A stretch of 64,000 nucleotides of DNA from Kiritimatiellia bacterium (lineage in GTDB: Bacteria; Verrucomicrobiota; Kiritimatiellia; CAIVKH01): positions 269,761 to 333,760 of the forward strand of contig JAOSKE010000003.1 in assembly GCA_027493775.1 (NCBI GenBank), given 5' to 3'. Below, piece by piece: positions 59,801 through 64,000 of the stretch. Every line of letters begins with the position of its first letter. The first letter of the stretch is position 1. Position numbers and translations under genes: made by a program. The notes beneath the pieces are model-generated. The model ran no database searches. It saw nothing but the letters and a program-made list of their open reading frames with translations, and had not been told where the DNA came from.

Positions 59801-60794
59801 TTCCCACGCTGTTCTGCGCATAGGCGCGGAAGTAGTATCGCGTGTTCACCGAAAGGCTGCTGATCGTTTGAGTGAAGGAGCCCGTCCCGCTTCCGATTGC
59901 CGTCTTGTTGTCGGCAATGGTGACACCGGCTGTCGTTTTGTACACCACGCCGCGATTCGTCACCGACGCCCCGCCATCGCTCGTGACATTTCCGCCCAGC
60001 CTCATGCTCGTCGTGTTCGTCTCCGTCGCAGCCGCCGTCTGCACCGTCGCCGTCGTCGCCGCCGCATCAACCGACCCGCCGATGTCCAAGCCATATCCCG
60101 AGGTGTTGTAGAAACCCCAGCCGCCCGTTGACGTCCGCCCGCTCGCGTAGTAGCGAAGCGTCACGGTGTTCGTCGCGTCGACACCCTGCAGTGCCGTCAC
60201 GCCGGAAAAATCCCATGCCCGGTTCAGCAAGGTGCTGACATTTGAGGAGCCAATCAGCGTGAATGAGCTTCCGTTGAGACTATACGCCCACTGATCCGCC
60301 ACGCCCGGAGTAGCATAGAAGCTCGACGTGCCATTAAACTGCGCCACAATTCCGGTAACGGACAGCGTGTACCCCGACGAGGCCGAAAGCGTGACCTGAA
60401 AATAGTCGTTGTTCGCCGTGGAAATACCATTATTTTGAAAACCGACGGTTCTGAACGAATTCACGCCCGCGCTCGCGCCCGCCCCGCTTCCACGAGTAAT
60501 CACAGCGGAGGCATCCATGTTTGCATTGTACACGGAAGCCGTCCACGTCGCCACGCTGCTGGCTCCGCTAAAGTTCCATCCGGCAATTTGCGCGGCAAGA
60601 CCTGACGGCACAGCGACCCCGAAAAATATCGTCGCAAAAATGAAAAACTTCCAAGGGTTGGAAGTCTTGCGGCAAACGAGTTCCAAGGGTTGGAAGTTTT
60701 GCTCTGAGGGGTTACGCTGTTTCGGGATAGAACTCGACCGTGACCGCCCACGAGCAGTCAGCCCCCTTCCAAGTCTGACCTCCTGTACACTCAT
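44865..60794 (-). CDS. Giant secreted adhesin-like protein (~5,300 aa) with FN3, choice-of-anchor-D-like, BACON-like and acidic cadherin-like repeats; seven apparent frameshifts
   Basis: ORFs 57096..60794, 54725..57265, 53149..54732, 52815..53261, 46849..52818, 46092..46940, 45949..46755 (3' part) and 44865..46043 overlap and join in mid-domain. Only one signal-like hydrophobic stretch was seen (FFIFATIFFGVAVPSGLAAQ). Confidence 0.8.
60649..60695. repeat. Pair of TTCCAA-N3-TTGGAA palindromes, 32-bp spacing (locus C), inside the 5' end of the giant ORF
   Basis: ttccaagggttggaa at 60649 and at 60681. Confidence 0.9.
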
Positions 60795-61893
60795 CCCTAT
60801 TGGCCCTAACTCCTCTGCGACGCCTTCCCGTTCGTCGCACAGCTACCCACCAACTCCTCATCCATCCATTAACTATTACACTTACACTCGAGGCCGAGTT
60901 AAGTCTCCCGATTAATTTTACACATTCTTTTTCGCTCAGCACTCCTCAGAAAATCAGCTTTAAGCAAGATTCAGAACATGCAAAGTCGGGCCACCCGTGA
61001 TCCAACTTATCTTTCAGGTTCCATTCTGTGACAACAGCCCGTTCAAGCGCAAGAAAAAAAATTAGTGCTGAATGCTCTTCAATTCGTCTTTGTGGTAGGG
61101 ATCGCCCCACTGTAGCTGCCCCTGTCCCGCCATAGGCTTCGGCGACGGCGGACGCGCTTCTGTAGCCGCCCGCGTTGAGGGCGGTGTATAAACCAATCCC
61201 CTCACGAATTTATTAAAACCTCTGATGGTAGGGCCGGACCGCCCTCCATAGGCGGGCAAGCTGAGGCTGGCCGGAATGTTCACGATGAACCCAAACGTAC
61301 CTGAATTGGGATATTGCCCTTCGGTCGCAACCCCCACATCCCCAGCGGCGCGCCCAGCGGTCGCGCCCTACCAACCACAACACAATCGTGGGGAACGCGA
61401 CAAATCCCTTCCGCGCCCTTCCGCGTTTTCTGTGGTTAAAAAACCCTTCATTCCCTGCACTACATCTTTTGTGCCTTTTGTGCTTTTTGTGGTTAGAATT
61501 AAACCCCGCGGTCAACGCCCGCGGCTACAGCATTGAGAGCATTTAGTTCGCCGTAATCTCTGTAGCCGCCCGTGCTGTAGCCGCCCGCGTTGAGGGCGGT
61601 GGATAAACCAATCCCCTCACGAATTTATTAAAACCTCTGATGGTAGGGCCGGACCGCCCTCCATAGGCGGGCAAGCTGAGGCTGGCCGGAATGTTCACGA
61701 TGAACCCAAACGTACCTGAATTGGGATATTGCCCTTCGGTCGCAACCCCCACATCCCCAGCGGCGCGCCCAGCGGTCGCGCCCTACCAACCACAACACAA
61801 TCGTGGGGAACGCGACAAATCCCTTCCGCGCCCTTCCGCGTTTTCTGTGGTTAAAAAACCCTTCATTCCCTGCACTACATCTTTTGTGCCTTT

Positions 61894-63378
61894 TGAGCCT
61901 CCCCCGAAAAAGTAGACAGTGGAGGGTCTTAGCTGATAGTGAAAAAGCTATGACCACAACGACCAACCAAGCGAAAACGAGGCGTCATTTTGATGATGCA
62001 TTCAAACGCGATGCTGTTAATCGAGTCATCCGGACCAACAAGCCATGCGCCGAGGTGTCTCGCGAACTGGGTATCAGAGGCAATTTACTGGCCCGTTGGA
62101 AGCGGGAGCAGTTGGAACGGGCCGATCAGGCAATGACCGGAACTGATCAGATGAAGCCGAGCGAGTTGGTGGCGGCCTTAGAGGCCGCCCGTCTGGAGGC
62201 GGAAAGATCTGCGGGAGCAACGCGACATTTTAAAAAAGGCTTTGAATATTTTTCAGCCAACAGATGCCCAAAGGAGGTCGGCGATGAATCAACTGGCCGA
62301 CGAGTTTCCGGTGCAACGGTTGGCCGAAGTCCTGAGCGTGTCGCGTGCGAGCGTTTACCGATCCGCAGAGCCCGGTCCTCGTGCCCAAGAAAACGCCGTG
62401 CTGACGCAGGCCATTGACCGGGTGTACCAGGAGCATCAACAGCGATACGGAAGTCCACGCATTTGCATCCAGCTTCGTGCCGAAGGCATGAGCTGCGGTG
62501 AAAATCGTGTGGCGCGCCTGATGCGTGAAGCCGGTCTGTACGCGATCACCCCGCACCGCAAGGCGCCGCGAACCACCGAGAGTTCGCATGGTGGCCCGAT
62601 TGCGCCCAACCTGCTCAAAAGCATGGAAATAACCCATGCCAATCAGGCGTGGGCCATGGATATCACCTATGTCCACTGCGGGCAGGGCTGGGTCTATTTG
62701 GCCGCCGTACTCGATCTGTATCTGCACAAAATCGTCGGTTGGCAACTCGGCGATCATCTGGAAAGCAGCCTGGTCACCGAGGCCTTGCAGATGGCCGCCC
62801 AACGCCAAGGCTGGCCGACCGGCGTGGTGGGTCCACTCCGATCGGGGTAGCCAATATGCCAGCGAGGCATTTATTCAACGGACGGAGGCCTTCGGATTCA
62901 TTCGCAGCATGAGCGCCAGGGGAAACTGCTACGACAATGCCACCATGGAGAGCTTTTTCGGGGTGATCAAACGCGAAGAACTCAACCGGTGGGAAATGCC
63001 CGATCTGGCCGCGGTTCGCTATCGCGTATTTGACTATATCGAAACGTACTACAATCGGCGCCGCATCCACACCGCGCTGGGAATGAGTCCAGCGGCCTTC
63101 TGGAAAGGCAGTCGTTGCCCAAGACGCCTTCGGCGGAGTTTTCAGAGGCATCGCTTGCTCCCCAGGTCGGCAAGGAAAAGGCCGGGGAGATGACTCCCGG
63201 CCCCGACCTGTGGTCGCAATATCCACGTATCCCTCGGCGAGTTGCTCTCCAGCAGATGCCCGCTTGCGTTTCCGTGGACACCCAATCCATCCAGCAAACT
63301 GACATTGAAAACAACAACAAAGAGGAGTACCCCACCAACCGTTAGACCCGACACTGTTCACAAATCGGGGGAAGCTCA
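61894..63378 (+). mobile_element. IS3-family insertion sequence (1,485 bp) with TG...CA ends and a 3-bp TTT target duplication
   Basis: Left end TGAGCCTCCCCCGAAAAAGTAGACAGTG; right end (reverse complement) TGAGCTTCCCCCGATTTGTGAACAGTG. Comparing with the uninterrupted cassette copy gives the TSD. Confidence 0.93.
61950..63193 (+). CDS. IS3 transposase OrfA/OrfB; AAAAAAG slippery motif at 62232-62238; additional apparent indels
   Basis: OrfA HTH (RRHFDDAFKRDAV..VSRELGI); OrfB RYGSPRI, WAMDITY, YLAAVLDL, HSDRGSQY, GNCYDNATMESFF, YIETYYNRRRIH. Confidence 0.92.
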
Positions 63379-63515
63379 TTTTGTGCTTTTTTGTGGTTAG
63401 AATTAAACCCCGCGGTCAACGCCCGCGGCTACAGCATTGAGAGCATTTAGTTCGCCGTAATCTCTGTAGCCGCCCGTGCTGTAGCCGCCCGCGTTGAGGG
63501 CGGTCTTAGCCCCGC

Positions 63516-64000
63516 TTACGGGTCAAACGCCTTGCCCGGCGGGGTGTAGTACAGCTTGTTTGTCCAGTAAATCGGATCCGGTGAACGACGGACGAAGATA
63601 ATCGCGTCGTCCGGCTCAATCACAAATGTCGCCGGGGAGGGCGCCGATTTATAGACGTTCGTATTGTAACCGCCGGGTACCAGCTTCCAGGCGTTATTCG
63701 CGGCGATATACCAGCGGGCGGCAGGTGTTTCAAATGTGCCGTTGCCGTCGTTCCGCAGGACACGAAGCTCGTCGGCAAATCGGAAGAGCACATCACTCGG
63801 AGCCTTCGACATTCCCGATCCGATCAATTTGAGATCCGCGAGTTTGACGCGGTAGGGATAACCCCAGCTCCGGACATACGACACATCTTGAGTGCCCATT
63901 TTGCCGGGGATCGTCATCACCACTTCCTGGGTCGAAACCATGCCCACGATCGGCAGGTTGATATCCGGCGAGCCGGACGGCAACTCGATCATGAAGCCTT
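63516..64000 (-). CDS. 3' end of a large secreted protein, paralogous to an internal module of the giant protein; 5'-partial
   Basis: FRFADELRVL...FVIEPDDAII...YWTNKLYYTPPGKAFDP* matches WRFADEIRVL...FVIEADDSLV...LWTMPLPYTPP encoded around 46730-47000. Confidence 0.75.
   Translation of the reverse strand, partial: GFMIELPSGSPDINLPIVGMVSTQEVVMTIPGKMGTQDVSYVRSWGYPYRVKLADLKLIGSGMSKAPSDVLFRFADELRVLRNDGNGTFETPAARWYIAANNAWKLVPGGYNTNVYKSAPSPATFVIEPDDAIIFVRRSPDPIYWTNKLYYTPPGKAFDP

Follow-up and report, generated by a model that had tools for sequence, protein, structure and literature searches.

Known systems of palindromic repeats

The closest described relatives of the element discussed here, a 415-bp composite cassette that stands twice between two giant genes in a 64,000-nt stretch of DNA from a Kiritimatiellia bacterium, are the repetitive extragenic palindromic (REP) sequences and the mosaics that they form. 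In Pseudomonas fluorescens, REP doublets forming hairpins (REPINs) are tandemly repeated together with the sequences that flank them (PMC3116915). REPs and the bacterial interspersed mosaic elements (BIMEs) have been tied to Y1 transposases, TnpAREP (Ton-Hoang et al., 2012; PMC3333891). Di Nocera et al. (2013; PMC3733652) describe GTAG-tagged REPs as forming head-to-head and tail-to-tail heterodimers, with conserved head-to-head spacers and with dimers reiterated together with flanking DNA; they give GTAG REPs as abundant in the verrucomicrobium Opitutus terrae, in families GTAG-17 to -20. Insertion sequence (IS) elements are known to land in REPs (Tobes and Pareja, 2006; PMC1525189).

The stretch analysed here, called the window, is positions 269,761 to 333,760 of contig JAOSKE010000003.1. 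Coordinates are those of the window, other loci being given as positions on contigs C1, C2 and C3 of the same genome (G000), and gene calls are simple open reading frame (ORF) calls. By way of further background, the BIMEs of E. coli were reportedly the subject of work by Gilson and colleagues in 1991. A BIME-2 unit measures roughly 80-100 bp, and BIMEs are known to be bound by IHF, gyrase or Pol I. Shyamala, Schneider and Ames are said to have described, in 1990, REP-mediated tandem duplications in the Salmonella chromosome that were many kilobases long and laboratory-selected.

Here, the cassette is quite probably a mosaic of the BIME kind, built from GTAG-tagged REPs of two families, that was doubled by recombination and then hit by an IS. 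The first family is a GTAGCC REP pair. The second is a REPIN-type inverted GGTAGGGC dimer with a conserved spacer of ~70-100 nt and an asymmetric phased tail. A REPIN-type dimer, a GTAGCC REP pair and a tail with phased short repeats are thus found together in one unit, and it is this combination that makes the unit a BIME-like mosaic. Its elements are non-coding and non-autonomous. The locus is one of ~55 intergenic arrays of selfish palindromic repeats in this genome; it is real, and its kind is already known. Four features set it apart: how large a share of the copies lies in arrays, the length of the composite unit, the phased tail with its asymmetry, and the lineage in which all of this occurs.

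The array between two giant genes

Reading the sequence of 60400-64000 together with the output of a repeat finder gives a head-to-tail duplication with a period of 415 bp. Copy 1 of the composite unit occupies 61160-61574 on the plus strand, as the repeat finder and self-comparison delimit it. Copy 2, on the same strand, is split. Its left part runs from 61575 to 61893, through the left TTT of a target site duplication (TSD; 61891-61893), and its right part (63379-63478) holds the right TTT (63379-63381), the remainder of the tail segment called T3 below, a minus-strand REP-A at 63410-63434, and after it the dimer spacer with a truncated REP. When the IS and one copy of the TSD are deleted in silico, 61575-61893 and 63382-63478 join to give a unit of 416 bp. 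This differs from copy 1 only by a T>G at unit position 28 (gtgtat/gtggat) and by one extra T in a T5/T6 run.

The units are bounded by a plus-strand GTAG hairpin of 25 nt, CTGTAGCCGCCCGCGTTGAGGGCGG, which occurs at three sites: 61160-61184, 61575-61599 and 63479-63503. The last of these is the terminal REP-B (plus strand), where the array ends, and it lies 12 nt past the stop codon (63516-63518) of the upstream gene, in the direction of that gene. The array stands between two giant minus-strand genes that have domains in common; the upstream one encodes 4,718 aa. A sequence-only reading of the same stretch had described a 415-bp composite cassette in tandem, its two copies nearly identical, with a third hairpin closing the array. 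That description holds at each point, and the sub-elements that it listed (the GTAG hairpins, the facing GGTAGGGC hairpins, a dimer and a repeat run) all lie where it placed them.

The unit can be read as a series of modules. REP-B comes first, then a head linker, the REPIN and the tail; a REP-A on the opposite strand, a conserved spacer of the dimer and a truncated REP complete it, after which the next REP-B opens the following unit. In copy 1, the direct repeat that bounds the units is a GTAGCC-type REP of variant B (61160-61184, plus strand; stem CCGCCC/GGGCGG). The head linker (…CCCCTCACGAATTTATTAAAACCTC…; 61185-61226, plus strand) is found also in the C2:318.9k and C3:373k arrays. The REPIN-type head-to-head heterodimer that follows (61227-61372, plus strand) is made of the left GGTAGGGC hairpin, a conserved unstructured spacer, and a right hairpin GGCGCGCCCAGCGGTCGCGCCCTACC at 61347-61372 whose GTAG tag is read on the minus strand; the facing pair of GGTAGGGC hairpins extends from 61227 (plus) to 61372 (minus).

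The asymmetric tail (61373-61505, plus strand), which follows the REPIN in the same orientation in ~70 copies, has three segments. T1 reads CCAACCACAACACAATCGTGG…; T2 (61409-61443) has TTCCGCG twice at a 10-bp phase (61409-61415 and 61419-61425) and ends in CTGTGGTTAAAAAA; T3 (61467-61504) has 9-bp TTTTGTGC repeats (run 61467-61492) and ends in GTGGTTAGAATTAAAC. Next comes a GTAGCC-type REP of variant A (61506-61530, minus strand; stem CCGCGG/CCGCGG), which forms a tail-to-tail heterodimer with the next REP-B and is weakly terminator-like on the minus strand. The conserved dimer spacer (AGCATTGAGAGCATTTAGTTCGCCGTAATCT) and the truncated REP (CTGTAGCCGCCCGTG, 61560-61574) together fill 61531-61574 on the plus strand, and a homologous spacer is present in the C2:319k, C1:677k and C1:202k arrays.

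Two further features of the unit may be recorded. The loop of the left REPIN hairpin holds an insertion of ~22 nt, CCCTCCATAGGCGGGCAAGCTGAG, itself a small hairpin, at 61242-61265 and again at 61657-61680. The tail (61403-61504) is helically phased, TTCCGCG recurring at intervals of 10 bp and TTTTGTGC at intervals of 9 bp, and both runs finish in (C/T)GTGGTTA; the second run has the look of the first after C>T decay.

A family of arrays throughout the genome

A BLAST comparison of one unit with the whole genome returned 276 hits, and their depth peaks between the GGTAGGGC hairpins, at ~100-140 hits per position. Iterated nhmmer searches of the whole genome gave 156 core copies at 55 loci, all 55 of them between long ORFs. 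Multi-copy loci hold 138 of the 156 copies. There are 37 such loci, with 2-10 nearly identical units each, and none of the 37 has mixed orientation; the arrays are strictly head-to-tail. Their periods include 162, 190, 225, 260, 333, 399, 407, 415, 492 and 617 bp, and module maps of five arrays (periods 162, 225, 333, 407 and 415 bp) show alternating REPs and recurrent linkers in tandem, which is the architecture of a BIME. The arrays total ~32 kb, or ~1% of the genome. Once identical copies had been removed, identity was 0.88 within arrays against 0.75 between them, the spacer having 65% identity between arrays.

The module order of the unit is repeated at at least seven other loci with ~70-80% identity, and the linkers too are common between loci. 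The fullest case given here is C2:319k, with five units of 407 bp and 78% identity across unit positions 106-413; partial repeats of the order occur at C3:491k, C3:668k, C3:393k, C3:630k, C2:383k and C1:206-208k. The typical core is an element of 125-129 nt, GGTAGGGCC…GCCCTACC. Strict GGTAGGGC…GCCCTACC dimers number 80, of which 62 measure 125-129 nt and 13 measure 145-148 nt. The copies in the window belong to this longer subclass of 13, which is defined by the insertion of ~22 nt in the left loop. In ~70 copies the tail lies on the same side of the REPIN and consists of a short CACAGTGAAATCGTG-like segment and then the 10-bp phased TTCCGCG, ending in GTGGTTAAAAA; some copies have an additional run of the 9-bp phased TTTTGTGC repeats, ending in GTGGTTA. 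Outside this genome the REPIN-tail composite was not found, either by BLAST in 40 relatives or in two exact-pattern scans of metagenome contigs and one of genome contigs; elsewhere only the bare hairpins occur.

The sequence-only reading had taken the ~100 bp between the facing hairpins for unique sequence, and had proposed that the element captures spacer DNA. The first idea is wrong, and the second finds no support. No other part of the unit is repeated as often as this segment, which has 156 copies distributed over 55 intergenic loci. It belongs to a REPIN-type dimer as the conserved spacer, and all 156 copies are homologous in it. A CRISPR-like or spacer-capturing array is ruled out by the same homology. 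The search for the unit and its sub-elements that had been recommended did find the family (156 core copies and 109 GTAGCC REPs), and the proposal of a BIME/REPIN-like higher-order element that amplifies as a block agrees with the module order at the at least seven other loci and with the arrays of 2-10 units at 37 loci.

One region of the genome is especially rich in these repeats. Eight arrays in the 25 kb of C3:369600-394000 account for 43 of the 156 core copies, every one in the minus orientation, with a copy of the IS3-family element within one of these arrays (C3:383052). The repeats alone turn the local GC skew positive across this region.

Hairpins of two families

The GTAGCC REPs, variants A and B taken together, number 44 exact copies and 109 copies with at most two mismatches. 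The two variants are related by a double compensatory swap in the stem, CC/GG for GG/CC, and they mostly form inverted A/B dimers, 33-56 nt apart. The right GGTAGGGC hairpin is present in 116 copies (at most one mismatch), against 0 for a reversed control. Both this hairpin and the GTAGCC type are high in copy number and extragenic, as REPs are, and the two hairpin types combine the GTAG tag with an imperfect palindrome of 20-40 nt: CTGTAG-CCGCCC-GCGTTGA-GGGCGG and GGTAG-GGCGCG-A-CY-GCY-RG-G-CGCGCC. Doublets are the main form, inverted REPs standing at a fixed short spacing as in a REPIN.

The two ends of the REPIN are GTAG-tagged hairpins built alike: GGTAG is followed by a stem of 6 bp, a mismatch, a further stem of 2 bp and a triloop. 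Pairing was analysed in an alignment of 51 distinct core copies. The local hairpins are 97-99.5% paired, the left hairpin 99.5%, and compensatory pairs occur in both. In the left hairpin, positions 10-22 are C-G in 29 copies and G-C in 20, and positions 14-18 are C-G in 41 and T-A in 10; in the right hairpin, positions 116-120 are T-A in 27 and C-G in 23.

The ~70-nt spacer between the hairpins behaves differently. RNAalifold gave it no consensus fold and no covarying helices on either strand. The reading of the units as RNA genes was dropped because the spacer gave no consensus structure on either strand. An Rfam scan of 60600-63600 at E<=1 returned nothing but a chance snoRNA hit (E=0.95). 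An array of structured non-coding RNA genes is therefore set aside, there being neither an Rfam family nor covariation in the spacer.

A probable transposase connection

REP elements are, in the described cases, associated with Y1 transposases, and five Y1_Tnp matches occur in this genome, four in long proteins and one in a short one. The short match (C3:508914-509168, minus strand) has the Pfam Y1_Tnp domain and narrowly passes the NCBIfam model NF047646, 'REP-associated tyrosine transposase' (RAYT), with 82.2 bits against a cut-off of 80. One long Y1 gene and the short one were scored against this model. The long genes were set aside as RAYT candidates: the one scored falls below the cut-off, and all four have an extra C-terminal region. 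REPs lie near only one long Y1 gene, which chance could explain (rough p about 0.15).

The long Y1 gene at C2:293776-295323 reads through from an Rhs-core-like N-terminal stretch and has a near-identical paralogue at C1:805103-806101; a single REPIN and a single GTAGCC dimer are found no more than 350 bp from the 3' end of the gene at C2. In the RAYT gene itself (C3:507927-509300), an in-frame palindrome GGCGGGCGGGACGCCCGCCCTCC, read GGRDARPP, stands inside the Y1 domain, and two more stand just beyond it. The N-terminal strand of the protein (…YVFVTWRLADSLP…) is in another frame, and the gene extends for ~300 further residues. It may be an intact gene with an assembly error, or a decaying gene.

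A direct association appears in other members of the phylum. A search of public genomes for the right-arm hairpin gave at least 120 stretches from Verrucomicrobiota, including Opitutaceae, Luteolibacter, Akkermansia, Udaeobacter, Puniceicoccaceae and others. Within the class its distribution is patchy (16 of 201 genomes, congeners having 0-1 copies), and metagenome-assembled genomes (MAGs) from short reads probably under-represent it. A tblastn search with this genome's RAYT against the hairpin loci matched six, and in four of these (L040, L075, L134 and L022, from other Verrucomicrobiota) a RAYT homologue is directly flanked by the GGTAGGGCGCGACC hairpin. At L075 the flanking elements are head-to-head dimers, 120 nt long, that share the two-stem design. 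Such hairpin-flanked RAYT loci have the classical 'REPtron' layout. Judged from this association, a Y1 (HUH) transposase of the RAYT type most likely acts on the GGTAGGGC hairpin in single-stranded DNA, which it would recognise, cut and rejoin.

Head-to-tail arrays of GGTAGGGCGCGACC were also seen in other Verrucomicrobiota MAGs, at L063 3831-4072 (108-bp period) and at L134 1103-1238 (45-bp period); the latter directly adjoins the RAYT gene.

How the array arose and grew

Two congeners (G004 and G001) have orthologues of both giant genes, at ~50% identity, and in these genomes the two genes lie only ~110-170 bp apart, stop to stop. No GTAG hairpin stands between the giant genes in either congener. 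This short gap without a cassette means that the 2.7-kb spacer in the present genome is secondary. Thus, the history would begin with the arrival of the whole composite at the intergenic site in this lineage. The result would have been an arrangement R-X-R, where R is one of two direct 25-nt copies of REP-B and X is the ~390 bp between them. Unequal recombination, or slippage during replication, between the two R copies would then convert R-X-R to R-X-R-X-R. The two units that are observed, with exactly one extra REP-B, are the product that unequal exchange or slippage predicts. The duplication is very recent, since only two differences have accumulated in 415 bp.

The last event, which the sequence shows directly, was the entry of an IS3-family element into the T-rich tail of copy 2, with duplication of TTT. 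The element (61894-63378) is 1,485 bp long, carries orfA/orfB on the plus strand and has TG…CA ends, starting with TGAGCC and ending with GCTCA; its imperfect terminal inverted repeats are TGAGCCTCCCCCGA and TGAGCTTCCCCCGA. Its Pfam domains (HTH_Tnp_1, 1.9e-9; HTH_21, 1.4e-18; rve/rve_3/rve_2) and its 3-bp duplication, TTT at 61891-61893 and 63379-63381, assign it to the IS3 family, and with them the earlier claim that an IS3 element had struck the duplicated cassette is confirmed. It is placed last in the sequence of events because it is present in one unit only, with a target duplication of its own.

Approximately ten copies of this IS occur in the genome, with 92-98% identity, and most of the other copies examined have 3-bp TSDs of varied sequence. 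Because the TSD sequences differ, there is no sign of sequence-specific targeting; two of nine copies examined sit within REP/REPIN arrays. The copy in the window has at least six single-base indels that are absent from five other copies, with the rve domain split and the transposase in three frames, and an AAAAAAG motif, a candidate site for a programmed -1 frameshift between orfA and orfB, is found at ~62233-62239 in this copy with its private indels. All IS copies differ mutually by single-base indels. The indels fit errors of the homopolymer type in the assembly.

These indels bear on another account of the locus, in which the duplication is an artefact of the assembly, alleles with and without the IS having been strung together through the short REP-B repeat. 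This account has the merit of explaining why the IS is absent from the first copy and present in the second, and the genome is indeed metagenome-assembled, from what the single-base indels in the IS suggest to be error-prone, long-read-type data. However, the TSD is a clean 3 bp, and joining the halves of copy 2 restores exactly one unit. The locus is interior to a contig of 868 kb, a repeat of 25 bp is far too short to mislead a long-read assembler, and 36 other loci hold 2-10 tandem units of the same family. An artefact is accordingly very improbable.

The main rival to growth by recombination is growth by the transposase. Here, a RAYT would excise a single-stranded segment bounded by REPs and re-insert it beside a resident GTAG tag; regeneration of the target would then yield head-to-tail units. 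Much in the arrays is congenial to such a route. The units join precisely at CT|GTAG. Entire composites, including their linkers, are repeated at separate loci, and one orientation prevails throughout at 37 of 37 multi-copy loci. There are nested structures in which a REP lies inside a REP, as where a truncated CTGTAGCCGCCCG is followed by a full REP, or where 22 nt are inserted in the left REPIN loop; a 30-nt mini-palindrome is likewise nested in REP-B loops in the C2:313k array and, as a degenerate copy, at 61110-61159. These structures suggest earlier insertions of REP into REP. Further, two papers (PMC3333891; PMC3733652, in its discussion) propose that RAYTs make REP arrays via circular intermediates.

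This route is nonetheless unlikely to have produced the duplication in the window. Simple unequal exchange is expected to leave the pattern R-X-R-X-R, in which the overhang of 25 nt and the repeat at the junction are identical. A direct demonstration of RAYT-driven REP transposition was not found in the literature compared. The RAYT of this genome seems to be frameshifted, and no REPs adjoin it.

Recombination between REP-B copies remains the preferred account of the doubling, and the BIME-like mosaic the preferred description of the unit, although several observations weigh against them. First, the number of copies is that given by the assembly, which has many single-base errors. Second, the boundaries of other arrays are not always at REP-B, according to a crude test: array ends were delimited automatically by shifted self-identity, which is sensitive to indels and gave usable ends for few arrays. 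Third, the uniform orientation would fit strand-specific re-insertion by a transposase equally well. Fourth, no REP-like hairpin occurs within ~2 kb of the RAYT gene, which therefore has no cognate flank, and the gene, a narrow pass at the cut-off, appears frameshifted at an A5 run near its N-terminus; this frameshift may be a sequencing error in this assembly.

The last point concerns the REPIN. Pairing from arm to arm is possible in 85% of cells of the alignment, two positions never pair, and the variable positions pair in 27-30 of the 51 copies; no covariation between the two arms is seen at variable positions in these 51 copies. Judged from such patterns, the element need not fold as one long hairpin, unlike the classical REPINs as these are envisaged. 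Since the hairpins pair locally and the arms do not covary, it is better regarded as a head-to-head REP heterodimer, a doublet of REPIN type whose arms fold by themselves.

An array caught just after its duplication offers a natural case in which recombination and transposase growth of REP arrays can be set against one another.

Comparison with the described systems

The ordered REPIN clusters and the GI-GIII tandem REP arrays of P. fluorescens SBW25 (Bertels and Rainey, 2011; PMC3116915) invite the first comparison. Here, the phylum and the hairpins are different and the spacer is longer; the arms are heterodimeric and do not covary, and the tail is asymmetric and phased. Most REPINs of SBW25 are solitary, whereas 138 of 156 copies lie in arrays in the present genome, and the RAYT of this genome lacks a flanking cluster.

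With the BIMEs of E. coli, and with BIME-2 especially, the arrays have in common alternating REPs and defined linkers, variable reiteration, an extragenic position and a link to Y1 transposases. However, the unit here is 162-617 bp long, and there is no sequence relationship.

The GTAG REPs of O. terrae are similar in the GTAG tag, in stems of 6-9 bp, in both types of dimer, the head-to-head type having a conserved spacer, in heterodimers of unlike stems and in clusters where dimers are reiterated along with the DNA that flanks them. O. terrae belongs to the same phylum, and the hairpin is present in MAGs of Opitutaceae. The likeness is one of architecture, and the hairpin is not assigned to a named O. 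terrae family. The REPIN-plus-tail composite is distinct in being found only in this genome among those searched.

As is reported for the Salmonella duplications mentioned above, the duplication has its join-point within a REP common to both ends of the segment. Unlike them, it covers 415 bp and repeat DNA only. As in the cases of Tobes and Pareja (2006), an IS lies inside a REP mosaic; here its target was the T-rich tail, not the palindrome.

Work on the REP/REPIN-RAYT system has been confined almost wholly to Proteobacteria; here the system is found, in expanded form, in a sludge bacterium of the Kiritimatiellia, and one hairpin of 26 nt is common to Verrucomicrobiota, where it flanks RAYT genes. 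Knowledge of how REP/REPIN elements work is unchanged by this case.

Possible functions of the arrays

The placement of the arrays says little in favor of a regulatory role. Among the 55 loci, 21 lie between convergent genes, 12 between divergent genes and 22 between tandem genes, and no fixed orientation relative to neighbouring genes is apparent. The enrichment between convergent genes (21 of 55, against a background of 18%; p=6e-4) is typical of REPs. Sites resembling promoters or terminators show no excess over shuffled sequence in the region. A relation between array orientation and the replication strand was considered as well. Raw GC skew seemed anticorrelated with orientation, but with the repeats masked the count is 33 of 55 and not significant (p=0.18); at C3:360-400 kb the local skew is a product of the repeats. 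With no orientation rule, with enrichment at convergent genes, with no promoter or terminator excess and with a null result for masked skew, the cassette is probably selfish or near-neutral repeat DNA as far as the cell is concerned.

The contrary view is that the units are functional, either as an array of small-RNA genes or as a platform of protein-binding sites that insulates or regulates the giant surface-protein genes. In the platform version, the phased TTCCGCG and TTTTGTG repeats ending in TGTGGTTAA are the candidate binding sites. The 9-10-bp phasing of the tail repeats would suit such a role, as would the conservation of the hairpins throughout the phylum and the enrichment of arrays at gene ends. 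The end of the tail, read on the other strand as TTAACCACA, also agrees at 8 of 9 bases with the E. coli DnaA-box consensus. Yet Rfam gives no match and the spacer does not covary on either strand; promoter-like and terminator-like sites are at the shuffled level, and the arrays keep no set orientation to genes. Congeners lack the cassette at this site, and no other genome or metagenome searched has the composite. A function of this kind is thus quite improbable.

A related proposal makes the composite a distinct, asymmetric, non-autonomous element of a sort not described among REPINs, comprising the GGTAGGGC dimer, the phased TTCCGCG/TTTTGTG ending in TGTGGTTAA and the GTAGCC dimer, that spreads as a block and forms arrays when a RAYT re-inserts it at its own GTAG end; its arrays could, in addition, offer proteins phased sites for binding where one gene gives way to the next. 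We hold this to be unlikely.

For the locus in the window, the hairpins might at most protect the 3' end of the mRNA of the upstream giant gene, or pause transcription, and a role in recombination between the giant genes is at most conceivable. The long direct repeats probably make the locus prone to changes in copy number. In practical terms, such arrays are hot spots for copy-number change, for IS insertion and for assembly trouble beside giant surface-protein genes.

Older repeats and spurious reading frames

At the left edge of the array, 61094-61159 (plus strand) holds older, degenerate repeat debris that has ~19 partial copies in the genome by BLAST. It consists of a remnant of GGTAGGGATCGCCCCA (61094-61109), a degenerate GTAG REP CTGTAGCTGCCCCTG (61110-61124), and a nested mini-palindrome of ~30 nt, TCCCGCCATAGGCTTCGGCGACGGCGGAC (61125-61153); the same palindrome is found in a REP-B loop of the C2:313k array. 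This mini-palindrome, TCMCGCCATAGSCTTCGGCGACGGCGGAC, lies in the loop of a GTAGCC REP-B with a possible duplication of GCG (window 61125-61153; C2:313500-314600) and has ~19 copies in the genome. It looks like a third family of small repeats, one that targets the loops of REPs.

ORFs of 86-112 codons cross the repeat units, at 61213-61515 (minus), 61276-61536 (plus) and 61628-61966 (minus), and comparable ORFs are present in many other arrays of the genome. These are in all likelihood spurious, and there is a risk of their being annotated wrongly; annotators should not take ORFs within such arrays for genes.

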